A stretch of DNA of 32,000 nt. It comes from Promethearchaeota archaeon. GTDB lineage: Archaea; Asgardarchaeota; Thorarchaeia; Thorarchaeales; Thorarchaeaceae. This document shows positions 787-8,453 of this stretch, in pieces (the stretch's first letter is position 1; every line of letters begins with the position of its first letter). The stretch is from NCBI GenBank assembly GCA_027031765.1, contig JALVPN010000040.1:53265-85264 (forward strand), read 5' to 3'. The translations under genes were made by a program, and so were the position numbers. Below the pieces are notes generated by a model that saw nothing but the letters and a program-made list of their open reading frames with translations, was not told where the DNA came from and did not search any database.

Positions 787-970
787 GTAGAGTGGCAGAC
801 ACTCCATCGTGGGGCGACCCGGTTGTTCTATGTGCCAGGGTGACATATGTGGAGTCATGGGCATGGCAGACGGGAGGCTGACCCGTCCGCTACCTCGCCA
901 CAAGAGTGTGATGGAATGTAGCAGACCCCTCCACGCACATGGCCTTGAAGGGGTCGAGTGACACGGTAGG

Positions 971-977
971 TTTAAAA
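971..977 (+). promoter_or_regulatory. TATA box candidate for the membrane glycoprotein gene
   Basis: TTTAAAA in GC-rich intergenic DNA about 50 nt upstream of ATG 1029. Confidence 0.5.
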
Positions 978-1028
978 CGAAGACCAAGGTGTGGCACCAA
1001 GACTGAGCAGAGAGGACGGACTGAGCTC

Positions 1029-2150
1029 ATGTTGTGCTCCAGGAGCATCTCAAAGATCCATGTTGCATCCGTACTGATTCTAGTTGTGCTCTCCTCTTCA
1101 TTCCAGTGTACCGTAAGGGCGCAGAAATCGCTTGACCAGGTTGTTGTATTGTATGATGCGTCTCACAGACAACAGTTCGCTCCTGACGATGCTGATCAAG
1201 GGCTCAAACTCATGCTTGACATGGTCAATGTCTCGACTAGGTACGTTGTGAAGGTCAACAATGACGACCCCCTCAACGACACAACCCTCAGTGGTGTTGA
1301 TGTCCTCATTCTGGCTTCACCCGACAAGAGCAACGAGTTCACCGACGTAGAAGTGCGTGGGATTGCGGAACTCTTACACAATGGCAGCTCGTTGTTTGTC
1401 CTAGGCGACCCCAGCATCGATCAGAACTCGACGTACTGGAACGACTTTGAGTTCCAAGACCTTGGTGAGAACATCGCAATAAACAGGCTCCTCGATGCGC
1501 TGAACATCACGGGCGCAAGGTACAGTATCAACCATACAATTGTTGGTGATGACGAGTACTGGTGGGGCGACACGATGTTTGACTACGAGCATGCACTCAA
1601 CACCTCGTCACCATCAATCATACGTCTGGACAGCTCAACCTGGGACACGACACACCCGATTTTCAAGGACATAAACGAAATCATCACAATGACATCGACA
1701 CTGAAGCCGATGAACACAACAGGTGCGATTGCAAAGGGCTACGACACCTCCTTCGCTCAGTACCGTAGGGGGCCCAACACCTTCGCGAACATATCATTTC
1801 CAAACATGTCGCTCACAGAGTTTGCCGAGAGGCCACTGTCATACTCGGCAATCAATGGCACATTCCCACCGTGGCTTGCTGCATTCAAGATCAACCGGAG
1901 CCGAATAGTGATGAGTGGCTCCACCATCATGTTCTCGGCAAGAGAGCTCGACCTCCCAGAGGACGATGCCAGGTCTGATGAGAAGTGGTTCTATCAAGGT
2001 GACAACCGGTTCCTGTTCATGAACATCCTAGACTGGCTGTCAGAGGAGTTCATTGAAACACCCACAGCCACAACGTACATGCTTGTGCTATCAGCAGGCA
2101 TGATACTTGTCGGAGTGGTATACTACATCGCTCAGAAGAAACGGCGCTAG
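1029..2150 (+). CDS. Type I membrane glycoprotein with GIFT/DUF4350-like (GldG/IFT52/OST48) extracellular domain
   Basis: Signal peptide (VASVLILVVLSSSFQCTVRA), VVVLYDASH and VDVLILASP segments typical of GIFT-type domains, DN..LFMNILDWL end motif, C-terminal TM helix followed by QKKRR-stop, 12 N-x-S/T sequons. Start moved from 939 to ATG 1029. Confidence 0.7.
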   Translation: MLCSRSISKIHVASVLILVVLSSSFQCTVRAQKSLDQVVVLYDASHRQQFAPDDADQGLKLMLDMVNVSTRYVVKVNNDDPLNDTTLSGVDVLILASPDKSNEFTDVEVRGIAELLHNGSSLFVLGDPSIDQNSTYWNDFEFQDLGENIAINRLLDALNITGARYSINHTIVGDDEYWWGDTMFDYEHALNTSSPSIIRLDSSTWDTTHPIFKDINEIITMTSTLKPMNTTGAIAKGYDTSFAQYRRGPNTFANISFPNMSLTEFAERPLSYSAINGTFPPWLAAFKINRSRIVMSGSTIMFSARELDLPEDDARSDEKWFYQGDNRFLFMNILDWLSEEFIETPTATTYMLVLSAGMILVGVVYYIAQKKRR

Positions 2151-2749: not shown

Positions 2750-5584
2750 TCAACTCCAGAACGGCCTTGTTCGGGCATATTCGGCCTCCGCTCGTGCAAT
2801 AGCTCGTAGCAGCTCGGTACGGTCTGTCATGTGAGGCTTAAGAATCTGTGCGGCAGTGTGCGGGCCAATCCCATGACCCGCCAGTACCAACAACGCACGC
2901 TTCCCGTATTGGGCAACAAGCGACGCTGCAAGAGAAGCCGACTTGAGTTCTCGCTGTTCGGTACGTGTGAGCCGGACTCCCGACCTCTGTCTGCGGAGAA
3001 CCTGTTCCACTCTGGGGTGGTCAGGGGGCTGGGGGGCAATCATTGAGGAACCACAGGCCGGACACTGGACATGAGCCTCAAGGGTGCGTAGCGTACGTAA
3101 CGAACTCCACCCGCAGTTCGTACAGACCAGCCTGAACTGTTTTCCAAGCAGTCTGTCTTCGAGGAGGCTGAGCACCTCGGCCTCATCCGCAACATCGGAG
3201 ATGACCTCGAATCGTGTCTTTGTTTCCAAAATCAGGCGTGCCAAGGGCGAGGGGCGACCGGTGCGCACTACGATCACGGAACACGACCCCTCACTGACTG
3301 CGTCAAAGACTGCGGATATGCGACCCGTGTCAAACTTCTCAACCAGCACTTCACGCGTTGCCTCATCAAACACGGGTGTACCCTCCAATGCACGGATCAA
3401 CCGTGAAACTGGAACCTCGCTGAGGGGTACATCCTTCCTGACGGCACCCATCCGACGGGCAACATGGACGAACCGTGACCCGAATGTCTGCGTCTGTCGG
3501 AGGGCTAGTCGGAGTATCTCCAGCGCCTGAGCACCCGTGTACTCGTGGAGAGCATCAACAACAGCATCCGCAGGGACACCCCCACTTGCTGCAAGGAGAA
3601 TGCGATACGGGTCGCATTCCACAGCAACGTCCTGGCCACACCTCGTTGTCAACAGCGCGGCAAGGACAATACCCAGCCCTTCATTCGTCTGTGAGCCAAG
3701 GGGCGCATGGACAACAACGCCATCACCAAAGTCTTCAACAAGCAGGCAAGTCGGGGACGGTAGATGTCCAAGGACATGCAGCGCCTCGGTAACAGTTTCA
3801 ATGACCAGGTCCTGGGCGCTGCCAACAATCCGATACTGGCTGTCCAGGTAGAACCGTGCGGTAGACTCGTCCTTCTCACCCACTACGTGCCAGAGCCGGG
3901 CAACTTCTGCAGCGACCTCATACGGAACCGGGATCATCTCCCCGACCCAGTGGGGCGTTTGGGTGTCAACATTGCTGACTGGGACACATAGTATCTCTTC
4001 GGGTTCAACACTCACAACACACCAAGGCCGTCCCCGGATTATGAACACGGAGCCCTGTTCAACGTGTTCTGCAACATACTCCTCGTCCAGTACACCAATA
4101 CTTGTGCGGGTCGTCATGTCTAACGCAGTCACACGCCTGATGTCAGGGATTGTACTGAGGTGTTCATAGTAGAACTTCCTGCACCAAGGGCCAGGCAACA
4201 CGTTGTCCCCATCAACACGCACAACATTCTGCTGGGCCATATACTCAAGAACACGGATCAGTTCGGTTCGGCTCAGCGATGAGAAAGGGTATGCGGAACG
4301 GACTATGTCCAGCAGGAGGTCGACTCTTGCACCCATTGTTTCAAGGACAATCCCCGAGAGCTGGTGCATCAATACATCAAGTGCAAGGACCGGAATCTTT
4401 GTGGGCTCGACTTTATGTGCTCTTGCCCGTCTCAAGATCACGGCAGCCTCGGTCACATCATCGAGGTTGTTGGTGGCGAGAACTACGCCTTCTCCCACAG
4501 CATCCACTCTGTGACCGGCCCGCCCAATGCGCTGCAGAGCCCGTCCAACCTGCCGGGGGCTGGAGTACTGGACTACGAGGTCGGTATGGCCGATGTCGAT
4601 TCCAAGCTCAAGGCTGGATGTCGCAATCACAGCCCGGGAATGGTGGGACTTGAACTGGTCTTCAGCGGCCATCCGGGCCTCGCGAGAGAGAGACCCGTGG
4701 TGCACATCGAACTTGAAGTCCGGACTGAGCAGACGCATCTTTGCACCGAGGGTCTCGGCAAATGAACGAGTGTTGGTGAATACAATCGTGGAGTTGTGGC
4801 CCTCAACCAGTTCGACAATCCGGCGGAGGCGTGCTGTAGAATGAGGGGGATAATGGAGTTGCTGCGCGACCCGAAAATCCTCTGCGGTGGGAACCGGCAT
4901 CTCAACACGTAGCCGTGTCCGCCTCTTGCTATAGCCCCCCCAGAGGATGTGGACTTGATGGCGCCGCCCACCCAGCAGCTGTGCAACATCACGGGGGTTG
5001 CCGACGGTTGCCGACAGTCCAATCCGTTGGACAGGAGCACCTGTGACACGCTCAAGCCGTTCCAGTGCCACTGCAAGTTGTGTGCCGCGCTTGCTGCCCG
5101 CGAGCTCGTGCACTTCATCAACAACAACAGCGAACACACTGTGCAAGTGAGTGCGCATACGCTTTCCCGGCAGTATTGCCTGCAGTGTTTCAGGGGTTGT
5201 AATCAGTAGCTGAGGGGGAGATATGGCCTGCTTCCGTCGCATGTACTGTGAGGTATCACCGTGCCGCGTCTGGGCGACTACCCCCAACTCCTCACAGAGC
5301 TGCACGACCCGTTTCAGTACGTCACGGTTAAGAGCACGGAGTGGGGTCACATACAGTACAAGGATGCCATGAGATTGCCGCCGTGAAACTACTGTGAGCA
5401 TACGGGTCAGGAGAGGTAGTAGTGCCGCCTCAGTCTTGCCGGAACCCGTTGGGGACAGGAGCAGTACGTCTTCACCGCGGCTAACAGCTGGGATTGCCAG
5501 TTCCTGGATGGGTGTTGGTTGTGTAATCCCATTCCGCTCCAAGAACTCGCGGATTGGTGGCGCAAGCAGATTAAATGCTCCCAC
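2750..5584 (-). CDS. lhr: Lhr-family SF2 DEAD/DEAH helicase with C-terminal Cys-rich Zn-binding region
   Basis: SPTGSGKTEAA, DEVHE, GLSATVGN, HHGSLS, ATSSLELGIDIG, QRIGRAGH motifs; C-terminal CTNC...CPAC. GTG start at 5584 preceded by GAGGTGG. Confidence 0.93.
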   Translation of the reverse strand: MGAFNLLAPPIREFLERNGITQPTPIQELAIPAVSRGEDVLLLSPTGSGKTEAALLPLLTRMLTVVSRRQSHGILVLYVTPLRALNRDVLKRVVQLCEELGVVAQTRHGDTSQYMRRKQAISPPQLLITTPETLQAILPGKRMRTHLHSVFAVVVDEVHELAGSKRGTQLAVALERLERVTGAPVQRIGLSATVGNPRDVAQLLGGRRHQVHILWGGYSKRRTRLRVEMPVPTAEDFRVAQQLHYPPHSTARLRRIVELVEGHNSTIVFTNTRSFAETLGAKMRLLSPDFKFDVHHGSLSREARMAAEDQFKSHHSRAVIATSSLELGIDIGHTDLVVQYSSPRQVGRALQRIGRAGHRVDAVGEGVVLATNNLDDVTEAAVILRRARAHKVEPTKIPVLALDVLMHQLSGIVLETMGARVDLLLDIVRSAYPFSSLSRTELIRVLEYMAQQNVVRVDGDNVLPGPWCRKFYYEHLSTIPDIRRVTALDMTTRTSIGVLDEEYVAEHVEQGSVFIIRGRPWCVVSVEPEEILCVPVSNVDTQTPHWVGEMIPVPYEVAAEVARLWHVVGEKDESTARFYLDSQYRIVGSAQDLVIETVTEALHVLGHLPSPTCLLVEDFGDGVVVHAPLGSQTNEGLGIVLAALLTTRCGQDVAVECDPYRILLAASGGVPADAVVDALHEYTGAQALEILRLALRQTQTFGSRFVHVARRMGAVRKDVPLSEVPVSRLIRALEGTPVFDEATREVLVEKFDTGRISAVFDAVSEGSCSVIVVRTGRPSPLARLILETKTRFEVISDVADEAEVLSLLEDRLLGKQFRLVCTNCGWSSLRTLRTLEAHVQCPACGSSMIAPQPPDHPRVEQVLRRQRSGVRLTRTEQRELKSASLAASLVAQYGKRALLVLAGHGIGPHTAAQILKPHMTDRTELLRAIARAEAEYARTRPFWS

Positions 5585-5619
5585 AGGTTGCCACCTCAAG
5601 GGCGCGATTGACGCCCAGA

Positions 5620-5865
5620 CTAGTCGGTAGAGCATGTGACACCAAGTCTACGAAGCACATGTTCCATTTCGTCCAAGAGGATACGTACATCGGTTCGGAG
5701 CGTTATGTCAGCACCCGCCACGACTTGTTTCAGCCTAGCCCGAACAGACTGGAGAGAGTCCGCTTCGCGAGCAATGTCACCGACGAGCTCACGGACATAG
5801 GACAGGTTGTGTATGTGACCTGCCACGTTCTCAAATGCCACAAGGAGGACTTCACCGGGTTTCAT
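5620..5865 (-). CDS. Small helical hypothetical protein (81 aa)
   Basis: MKPGEVLLVAFENVAGHIHNL..., ATG 5865 preceded by GGTGATA RBS, co-oriented just upstream of lhr. Confidence 0.6.
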   Translation of the reverse strand: MKPGEVLLVAFENVAGHIHNLSYVRELVGDIAREADSLQSVRARLKQVVAGADITLRTDVRILLDEMEHVLRRLGVTCSTD

Positions 5866-6010
5866 ATCAGAGGTATCACCACGAACAGGTGTAGGATGAA
5901 AGTGTGGGGCACCAACCGACAGTCTAGACACATTGGACAGGCCGCCATGGCCCAAGTGGTATGAGCAGTTTTACGTTTAGCTTGAGTACTGGTCAATCCC
6001 GTGTGTTGCG

Positions 6011-6121
6011 CTACTCCTCTTCCTCCTCGCCATAGACAGTATACGCAAGGATGAGGAGGAGAGCAAAGAAGCCCATTGCATTGAGGACAATCCCAAGAAT
6101 GGGGGTCAGGTCGGCTTGCAT
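6011..6121 (-). CDS. 36-aa single-pass membrane miniprotein with poly-Glu tail (OST4-like candidate)
   Basis: Hand translation MQADLTPILGIVLNAMGFFALLLILAYTVYGEEEEE*. TTATAA box at 6152-6157, about 31 nt upstream, suggests a leaderless transcript. Confidence 0.7.
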   Translation of the reverse strand: MQADLTPILGIVLNAMGFFALLLILAYTVYGEEEEE

Positions 6122-6151
6122 GACAATCTTGTGGGAGCGGACTCTAGGAAC

Positions 6152-6157
6152 TTATAA
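6152..6157 (-). promoter_or_regulatory. TATA box candidate for the miniprotein gene
   Basis: TTATAA at canonical distance from ATG 6121. Confidence 0.5.
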
Positions 6158-6260
6158 TGGTTACGACGAAACATATTGTCGTAATCATGGTGCAGGGGGA
6201 GGTCATCATGGCCACTGCGGCAGCAAAGTCACGACGGAACATATTGTCGTGATTATGGTG
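6157..6260 (+). repeat. Two imperfect direct repeats (about 33 nt, 68-nt period), each a hairpin with AACAUA loop
   Basis: 6160-6192 gttacgacgaaacatattgtcgtaatcatggtg versus 6228-6260 gtcacgacggaacatattgtcgtgattatggtg; the differences preserve base pairing. Confidence 0.85.
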
Positions 6261-6485
6261 GTGGGGCCACGCCGGCTCCAAGAACTCATAGTGGTCAAGA
6301 CGGGACACGGCTTATCGCCATTCCCCCATCAGGGGGCCGGGTAACCAGTGGCAACGCCCATAGAAAACCGGCAACGACCATGGTGCTCCGTATGGCCCGT
6401 GAGGACTACAGGTCACCCGAAACCAGTATGCATCGTACAGATGCGACAGTGGTTGGTAGTCAAGCAGGGTATAGGCCGGCGGGTG

Positions 6486-6740
6486 CTATTCTGCCTCCGT
6501 ACTACTGGACTCGTAGAACTTGTCAATGAAAGACCCGTAGACGTCGACCGGCTCGGTCAGTGATGTCACTTCATCAATCAGCATCTCCAAGCCACATGCC
6601 CCGCACTTCACAGTAGCCCAGCCAGCCTCCTTGTGCAGCTCTATCTTGATTGCGGTGTTACCACAGTCAGGGCAGGGGTATACATCGGGAATCCGCTTTG
6701 GTGGCCGTCGACGAATCTTCTGCCTTCTTCTTCGTCCCAT
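6486..6740 (-). CDS. elf1: Transcription elongation factor Elf1
   Basis: MGRRRRQKI basic N-terminus, CPDC...CGAC zinc ribbon, EPVDVYGSFID C-terminal motif. Confidence 0.92.
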   Translation of the reverse strand: MGRRRRQKIRRRPPKRIPDVYPCPDCGNTAIKIELHKEAGWATVKCGACGLEMLIDEVTSLTEPVDVYGSFIDKFYESSSTEAE

Positions 6741-6980: not shown

Positions 6981-7214
6981 ATGTCAGAGCTATCAAAGAA
7001 CGCACAGTGCGTCCTCAGGATTCTTGAAACCGCCGACTCACTTACGACCAGTGAGATTCTCGAACTCGCGCGGAGTAAGGAGTTTGCAGACATCTGTACC
7101 GACTGTGCAGGTGGCGACACGTTCATTGCTGCAGCGAACCAGCTGGTCGAGAGAGGACTGATTAGGCGCAGGTTCGGTCGTGGGGGCTACCGGTGGGAAC
7201 TCGTCCGGGAGTGA
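6981..7214 (+). CDS. Small winged-helix protein with CxxC insertion
   Basis: VLRILETADSLTTSEILEL (helices 1-2), ICTDCAG, ANQLVERGLI (helix 3), wing GGYRWEL. Ends 6 nt before sufS; TTAATA box about 6950. Confidence 0.7.
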   Translation: MSELSKNAQCVLRILETADSLTTSEILELARSKEFADICTDCAGGDTFIAAANQLVERGLIRRRFGRGGYRWELVRE

Positions 7215-7220
7215 TGCATA

Positions 7221-8453
7221 ATGTTGGATGTGAGAGAGGACTTCCCTGTCCTGAAGAGGAGGATAAACGGGCATCCACTAGTATACCTTGACAGTGCATG
7301 CATGTCCCTAAAACCAAAGCAGGTGGTCAATGCGATGAGGGAATACTATGAGGTATTCCCGGCCTGTGGAGGCAGGAGCATCCACCGACTAGGAGAGGAG
7401 GTCTCTAATGCATGCGCTAGTGCAAGGGAGCGGTTTGCCAGGTTCATCAATGCTGCAGAGAGTAGCGAGTGCATCTGGACACGCAATGCGACCGAGTCGT
7501 TGAATATTGTTGCAGCGTGCACGGATCTGTCTGCCGGCTCCAAAATCGTCACGACATCACTGGAACACCACAGTGGTTCGTTGCCATTTGTGGAGAGGGC
7601 AAGGCGCGACGGGCTGAAGATAGAGGTGGTAGAGGCAAGACCTGACGGCACATTTGATATCGAAGACTGGAAGAGTGCAATTGACAGCTCGACCAGAATG
7701 GTATCAGTGGTACACTCTTCAAACGTCACAGGAACCATCGCACCACTGAAGGAGATTGTCGAGATTGCACATGACCGTGGTGCACTGGTCATATCCGATG
7801 ATGCGCAGTTTGCCCCACATCACCCCTTGGACGTACAGGCGCTCGATGTGGACTTCTCCGCAATCTCAGTACACAAGATGTGTGGGCCGACAGGGATGGG
7901 AGTCCTGTACGGGAAGATTGAACACTTGAAGTCGATGCGGATGTTCCTCTATGGCGGGGACACGGTCAGTGATGTGCGCTATGAAGAGGGGAGAATACTT
8001 CCCGAGTACCTGCCACCACCAGAGAAGTACGAGGCAGGCCTCCAGAACTATGCCGGGATAATTGGTGCCGGCGCAGCAGCGGACTATCTACAGTCGCTAG
8101 GCATGGACGAGATAGAGAAGCACGAGAGAGGCCTCTTGGAAAGAGCCCTGAAGGAACTTAGCGACATGGATCACATACACATTGTTGGTACGGATGACAC
8201 CAACATTAAGACAGGACTCGTGACATTCACAATCGACACAATTGGGGCGGCCCATGACATTGCGACCTTCCTCAGTGAGGAATATGGCGTGATGATACGA
8301 AGTGGGTGGCACTGTGTAGGTCCGTTCCACTATCAACTGGGGATTGACCCTACAAAGGGCTCAGCACGAGCTAGTTTCTACATATACAACAACATAGATG
8401 ATCTGAGTACGTTTGCCCAAGGGGTTCGCGCGCTCATTGAGATGAGTTCATGA
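7221..8453 (+). CDS. sufS: Cysteine desulfurase, class II (SufS/CsdA type)
   Basis: REDFPVL, VYLDSACMSLKP, PLP-lysine SVHKMCGPTGMG, catalytic RSGWHC, RASFYIYN. Confidence 0.92.
   Translation: MLDVREDFPVLKRRINGHPLVYLDSACMSLKPKQVVNAMREYYEVFPACGGRSIHRLGEEVSNACASARERFARFINAAESSECIWTRNATESLNIVAACTDLSAGSKIVTTSLEHHSGSLPFVERARRDGLKIEVVEARPDGTFDIEDWKSAIDSSTRMVSVVHSSNVTGTIAPLKEIVEIAHDRGALVISDDAQFAPHHPLDVQALDVDFSAISVHKMCGPTGMGVLYGKIEHLKSMRMFLYGGDTVSDVRYEEGRILPEYLPPPEKYEAGLQNYAGIIGAGAAADYLQSLGMDEIEKHERGLLERALKELSDMDHIHIVGTDDTNIKTGLVTFTIDTIGAAHDIATFLSEEYGVMIRSGWHCVGPFHYQLGIDPTKGSARASFYIYNNIDDLSTFAQGVRALIEMSS

Follow-up and report, generated by a model that had tools for sequence, protein, structure and literature searches.

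The closest described system is eukaryotic OST4 (yeast Ost4p, human OST4; Pfam family PF10215; PDB entries 1RKL, 2LAT, 6EZN, 6C26 and 6S7O). OST4 stabilises STT3 and is needed for the incorporation of Ost3/Ost6. In a review of cryo-EM structures, 'Ost4 is nestled between TMH1 and TMH13 of Stt3', where it helps to recruit Ost3/6, with its N-terminus out and its C-terminus in (PMC7226087).

Ost4 and Ost5 homologues have been reported in most Asgard classes (Eme et al. 2023, Nature 618:992, PMC10307638), and the statement of an earlier sequence-only reading of the present locus that no archaeal OST4 was known is out of date. That claim is of the same kind as the one considered here, namely a tiny OST4-like subunit present in most Asgard classes beside homologues of STT3, Ost1, Ost3 and Ost5; its likeness to the family described below is one of description, not of compared sequences. 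Literature searches returned no further paper describing an archaeal Ost4, and a 2026 structural-clustering preprint mentions OST48 but not Ost4. A more generic likeness is found in the YldA-like and MgtS-like small proteins, which have 30–45 aa, one transmembrane (TM) helix and short charged ends and pack onto a larger membrane protein, as is proposed here; they are, however, bacterial families with other partners, their Atlas scores (0.77–0.84) are below the lead threshold, and the archaeal protein has no Pfam match.

The window, that is, the whole stretch of 32,000 nucleotides analysed from a Promethearchaeota archaeon (contig JALVPN010000040.1), encodes a single-pass membrane miniprotein of 36 aa (Table 1). 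It belongs to the same 36–37-aa class as eukaryotic OST4, has one TM helix with a Gly followed ten positions later by a Tyr, is predicted to lie N-out and C-cytoplasmic, and is modelled in contact with TM1 and TM13 of the STT3-type catalytic subunit; Ost3/6-like and ribophorin-I-like genes are likewise present in the host genome. Unlike eukaryotic OST4, it gives no significant sequence match to the family (none in Pfam, and a negative comparison of HMM scores with decoys), lacks the M-I-[ST]-D-x-Q-L start in register and the His after the Tyr, does not conserve the Asn, carries a strongly acidic tail (EEEEE) instead of a polar or basic one, and is encoded in a helicase cluster.

Gene Structure and Conservation

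The sequence-only reading had described a 36-aa ORF preceded by a TATA box of its own, and both were found as described. The minus-strand ORF encodes exactly the residues that had been given, MQADLTPILGIVLNAMGFFALLLILAYTVYGEEEEE; the MQ at its start is invariant, the TM helix spans about residues 5–30, and the acidic tail reads EEEEE. The end of a TTATAA box at 6157..6152 (-) stands 31 nt before the ATG, so that the leader would be very short, and the same box, within the consensus GCAATGATTATAAG, was present at the same distance in all of the 16 orthologous loci inspected.

The short frame was intact in 24 of 24 same-family genomes in a six-frame search of 40 relatives, and with the family HMM an intact copy was recovered from 84 of 85 same-family genomes. 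All same-family copies start with MQ, comprise 33–41 residues and always use the short frame. The conserved positions in the family alignments were L13, G17, A20, L21, Y27, Y30 and G31, with G17 nearly invariant and Y27 invariant, whereas position 14 is Asn in about one third of the members and K, T, S, A, D, E, Y or V in the others; of the three residues singled out earlier for conservation, the Gly and the Tyr are thus kept and the Asn varies freely. On a gap-free core of 24 codons in 32 unique sequences, pN/pS was 0.37 (pN 0.28; pS 0.76, near saturation) and the median dN/dS of less saturated pairs was 0.25. The ORF is a real gene, constrained at the protein level and under purifying selection (dN/dS about 0.25–0.37).

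The exact sequence was absent from a collection of 15 billion proteins, in which the relatives, where named at all, are only 'hypothetical protein'. Gene callers predict the miniprotein in other assemblies, but it is unannotated in its own genome. When 1.84 billion representative proteins were searched with the HMM, the matches were 20 clusters of the same narrow family and one repeat protein. The only sequencing run listed as containing the stretch was that of a hydrothermal-vent metagenome (DNA), and no RNA run was listed. Two same-family genomes have a second, paralogous copy on another contig (L060:1477-1590 (+), and L061).

The spacer between the Elf1 gene and the miniprotein gene measures 365 nt in the window versus about 70–100 nt in relatives. 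Positions 6157–6254 hold a pair of direct repeats of about 30 nt whose units each contain a hairpin, ACGACAATATGTT(T/C)CGTCGT, and no further copy of the repeat was detected anywhere else in the genome. The 403-aa ABC_transp_aux-like protein is encoded 4 kb from the miniprotein gene. An RPA-like protein is also among the neighbours of the miniprotein in the window, and the nearest named relatives of the window's Lhr helicase are from Candidatus Thorarchaeota MAGs.

Table 1. Features of the window around the miniprotein gene, with positions counted from the first nucleotide of the window.
Feature	Position	Strand	Evidence and remarks
403-aa protein	939-2150	+	ABC_transp_aux 34.0 bits, just below the 34.7 cut-off; weak match to the IFT52 GIFT domain
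Lhr-type helicase	2750..5635	-	Pfam DEAD, Helicase_C, DEAD_assoc and WH_Lhr; synteny
orfX, conserved helical protein of about 80 aa	5620..5865	-	Conservation; no Pfam family
36-aa single-pass membrane miniprotein gene	6011..6121	-	Stop codon included; ORF, orthologs, alignments and dN/dS
Spacer between Elf1 and miniprotein	6122..6485		Holds the promoter and a local direct-repeat pair
Promoter element, BRE-like stretch and TATA box, GTAACCATTATAAG	6151..6164	-	Motif conserved in orthologous loci; putative promoter function
Elongation factor Elf1	6486..6740	-	Window neighbour
wHTH protein and cysteine desulfurase	6981..8453	+	Window neighbours

Gene Order and Distribution

The order SufS-wHTH-Elf1-miniprotein-orfX-Lhr was retained in every same-family locus examined. 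The gene downstream of the miniprotein, designated orfX, overlaps the Lhr start by 16 nt in the window; its listed ORF extends to a TTG at 5955, and conservation begins near the ATG at 5865. The orfX product is a helical protein of 75–85 aa with the motifs AFENVAxHIxNL and TLRTDIRILINE, was found in 82 of 85 same-family genomes as well as in nine other Asgard families, and matched no Pfam family; it may be an uncharacterised partner of Lhr. The gap between miniprotein and orfX is 55–145 nt in this genome, and a reading of the sequence between the two in the window made no separate promoter motif evident.

Families f2, f8 and f15 (Baldrarchaeota) share the order miniprotein-orfX-Lhr, with a spacing between miniprotein and orfX of 2–15 nt in f8 and f15, and a one-helix ORF lies just upstream of orfX in families f7, f13 and f19. 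These syntenic ORFs encode about 27–38 aa with a charged tail, the exact start being uncertain in some. With the Thor-only HMM, members of f2, f19 (f19b), f13 (f13c) and f8 scored 20.7, 19.9, 19.2 and 15.4 bits, respectively, versus a maximum of 11.2 among TM decoys, a comparison that somewhat favours the orthologs because the decoys, segments of 28 aa, lack a charged tail. In three f13 genomes (L109, L110, L056) the miniprotein frame starts right after a TGA and has no in-frame ATG, GTG or TTG near its start; an ATGATG or GTG stands in the -1 frame behind a GGAG.

Outside the Asgard archaea, a one-helix ORF with an acidic tail directly precedes Lhr, without orfX, on contigs from three Bathyarchaeia MAGs (L142, L143, L144). 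One of the Bathyarchaeia sequences, MKMDSNIILYIIYIVLILGGFLALGYHLLAGEEEEA, shares a Y-H pair with eukaryotic Ost4. Family f22 (L051:1477-1611 (-) and four related genomes) has a 44-aa miniprotein with a TTG start and a long acidic tail (..ALLLILAYLLFYNEEEEE..), which scored 21.8 bits with the Thor HMM; its gene is flanked by those of a HerA-like ATPase and ribosomal protein S3Ae and is not close to Lhr.

The miniprotein gene heads an orfX-Lhr-type cluster in at least seven Asgard families, and a similar ORF precedes Lhr in a few Bathyarchaeia. Its conserved neighbours were orfX and the Lhr helicase, never glycosylation genes, in the loci examined. Both annotation and family HMMs overlook candidate small subunits of this kind; synteny can be used to trace them instead.

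Sequence Relationship to Ost4

Several details of the likeness that had been described were correct. The first 28 residues of human OST4 had been quoted exactly, as judged against PDB 2LAT/6S7O, the Ost4 chains in the PDB have the stated 36–37 aa, and the pattern L.I..N..G....LL...Y is shared without gaps once the two sequences are offset by +2, in which register N12, G15 and Y25 of the human protein align with N14, G17 and Y27 of the miniprotein. The ten-residue spacing of G17 and Y27 is that of G15 and Y25 in both human and yeast Ost4. The Asp at position 4, which had been counted as shared, is out of register in this alignment and is not conserved. Compared with the OST4 signature (the M-I-[ST]-D-x-Q-L start, G15 and Y25-H26), the miniprotein starts with MQ and has no His after Y27.

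Profile searches with the miniprotein and its Thor relatives gave no support for a relationship. PF10215, with a curated cut-off of 25 bits, matched neither the miniprotein nor 14 Thor relatives at E<=10, and gave 0 matches above the cut-off in six-frame translations of this genome and of 301 Asgard genomes, the four sub-threshold matches there being read-through tails or pieces of large ORFs and hence spurious. Pfam and NCBIfam returned nothing useful for the miniprotein, the best match being MyrrCad with an E-value of 0.15, and yielded no match for the 14 Thor relatives either. A search of PDB sequences with the family profile found CP43 helices only and did not find OST4. When residues 1–28 of human and yeast Ost4 were scored with the family HMMs, both scores lay inside the spread obtained for 1167 natural TM segments of the own genome, which served as decoys; with the A3 HMM, 25% and 4.5% of the decoys scored as high as human and yeast Ost4, respectively, and broader family HMMs were no better than A3 at separating the two proteins from TM helices. 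From the negative Pfam, six-frame PF10215, PDB-profile and HMM-decoy results it follows that the miniprotein itself has no statistically meaningful sequence similarity to OST4. Human and yeast Ost4 gave only 14.8 bits against each other, which indicates that the OST4 family holds little sequence signal.

A weak bridge was provided by the syntenic ortholog of family f19, MTIDIYFIQNLLILLGLLTIIFIIAYSIIEAEEK. Pfam Ost4 was its sole match and was in register (E 0.0098; 16.2 bits, cut-off 25), an E-value within the range of clearly spurious matches to other small TM families in the same scans. Its top three named Atlas clusters were all Ost4 (0.82, 0.80 and 0.80; 192/256 shared features). The Atlas look-alikes of the miniprotein and of the f7 ortholog included no Ost4 and had scores below 0.85, the f7 ortholog giving YldA-like clusters. 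The chain from synteny through the f19 ortholog to Ost4 is suggestive, not proof, and sequence alone cannot prove common descent of the miniprotein and OST4.

Predicted Complex with AglB

The genome has a single STT3/AglB of 917 aa (contig C40:20019-22772), encoded 36.5 kb from the miniprotein gene; it also has an Ost3/6-like gene, about 4 kb away from that of AglB, and a ribophorin-I-like gene. The best PDB matches of this AglB were human STT3A/B and yeast Stt3 (E 1e-67 to 1e-57), and no archaeal AglB structure passed E 1e-5. The N-terminal cytoplasmic helix of AglB is conserved and very basic (KRSxxRFLRQVFHxPKAKISRGS).

A 27-row alignment of the AglB TM domain (530 aa) and a 15-row alignment of the miniprotein were the input for a co-fold of the two. 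The OST4-like pose on the organism's own STT3/AglB that the sequence-only reading had proposed to look for was predicted with a clear margin, with ipSAE values of 0.73, 0.74 and 0.71 versus 0.00 for the best of three controls, which were unrelated 36-mers and perhaps not hydrophobic helices. The 0.73 mark is reached by 58 of 80 solved complexes and by 2 of 110 mismatched pairs. The runs agreed in at least 87% of contacts, with a partner pLDDT of at least 72.

The predicted interface on AglB comprises residues 27–54, 155–167, 450–461 and 486–506, which in the AF2 model (mean pLDDT 76) correspond to TM1, TM4, the cytoplasmic end of TM12 and TM13. Residue 13 of the miniprotein contacts AglB 46–47, near the outer end of TM1, and residues 23–24 contact AglB 35–36, near its inner end; these pairs run antiparallel to TM1 and therefore predict an N-out, C-in topology, like that of Ost4. 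The lowest-error contacts involve miniprotein residues 13, 16, 17, 20, 21, 23 and 24, among which 13, 17, 20 and 21 are conserved. The modelled acidic tail would adjoin the basic cytoplasmic N-terminal segment of AglB. Conservation of AglB does not discriminate the site (0.67 for contact versus 0.75 for non-contact residues on the same helices).

As modelled, site and topology coincide with those published for OST4 on STT3. Solved STT3-OST4 complexes memorised by the model may have contributed to the pose, and the modelling might put a generic hydrophobic helix into this AglB groove as well.

Functional Interpretation

Of the roles considered for the miniprotein, the most likely is that of a small subunit accessory to STT3/AglB, the organism's eukaryote-type oligosaccharyltransferase. 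The miniprotein would probably insert as a single-pass protein with its N-terminus out and its acidic tail in the cytoplasm, and its conserved small-residue face (L13, G17, A20, L21) would pack in the AglB groove lined by TM1, TM4, TM13 and the cytoplasmic end of TM12, the site where OST4 sits on eukaryotic STT3. For this identification as an Ost4-like subunit of an STT3-type AglB the chances appear about even; it draws mainly on the co-fold, in which both site and orientation are as expected for Ost4, together with the weak sequence bridge through one ortholog, that of f19. The resemblance to OST4 put forward at the outset thus stands in part: the conserved gene, its promoter, G17/Y27 and the pose speak for it, while N14, Asp4, the Pfam result and the HMM comparison with TM helices do not. 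Binding to AglB, a functional effect on it and common descent with OST4 are what we infer from these data.

The real partner could instead be another membrane complex, or the miniprotein could have a tethering or regulatory role with co-transcribed orfX and Lhr, the AglB pose being a modelling artefact; we regard this as quite conceivable, though not probable. What recommends it is mainly an ancient, tight linkage to orfX and Lhr and not to glycosylation genes, seen in the gene order of every same-family locus examined and of f2, f8 and f15, in the 2–15 nt spacing in f8 and f15, in the position upstream of orfX in f7, f13 and f19, and in the position before Lhr in three Bathyarchaeia loci; the miniprotein also has no sequence-level link to Ost4. 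Lhr and orfX are, however, soluble and have no known membrane role, and archaeal operons often mix unrelated functions, while the AglB co-fold passed by a wide margin, at a specific site and with a conserved face, and no alternative partner was identified.

The position as first cistron of a conserved cluster, tight to orfX in some lineages and with no separate promoter motif evident between the two in the window, would also suit a translated leader (uORF) that mainly tunes the downstream orfX-Lhr operon and whose peptide has little function. This is very unlikely given the purifying selection on the amino-acid sequence and the conservation of the helix face, the Y..YG motif and the acidic tail across families sharing almost no nucleotide identity; the 55–145 nt gap to orfX in this genome and the second, paralogous copy elsewhere in two genomes argue in the same direction. 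That so short an ORF, unannotated in this genome, arose by chance in an intergenic spacer has a negligible probability: it is intact in 84 of 85 relatives with a dN/dS well below 1, its start and promoter are conserved, and gene callers predict it in other assemblies. A chance ORF is effectively refuted by the conservation data.

Biological Significance

The family could, in a further step that we consider rather unlikely, be the true archaeal ancestor of OST4 and be older and wider than reported, spanning at least seven Asgard families and some Bathyarchaeia; the STT3-OST4 core would then predate the eukaryotes, perhaps even the Asgard lineage, with the gene still heading an orfX-Lhr operon. 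Since Asgard Ost4 homologues were announced in 2023 and the evidence consists of structure prediction and weak sequence hints, the value of the finding is limited. Beyond the known Asgard Ost4, it adds the acidic tail, the linkage to a helicase operon and a possible reach into Bathyarchaeia; the tail, the orfX-Lhr link and the Bathyarchaeia look-alikes were in no paper found in the literature searches.

If the miniprotein is a subunit of AglB, the STT3-Ost4-Ost3 subcomplex known from the eukaryotic oligosaccharyltransferase would be present in Thorarchaeota, and the two proteins would offer a concrete pair for reconstituting a pre-eukaryotic multi-subunit OST.
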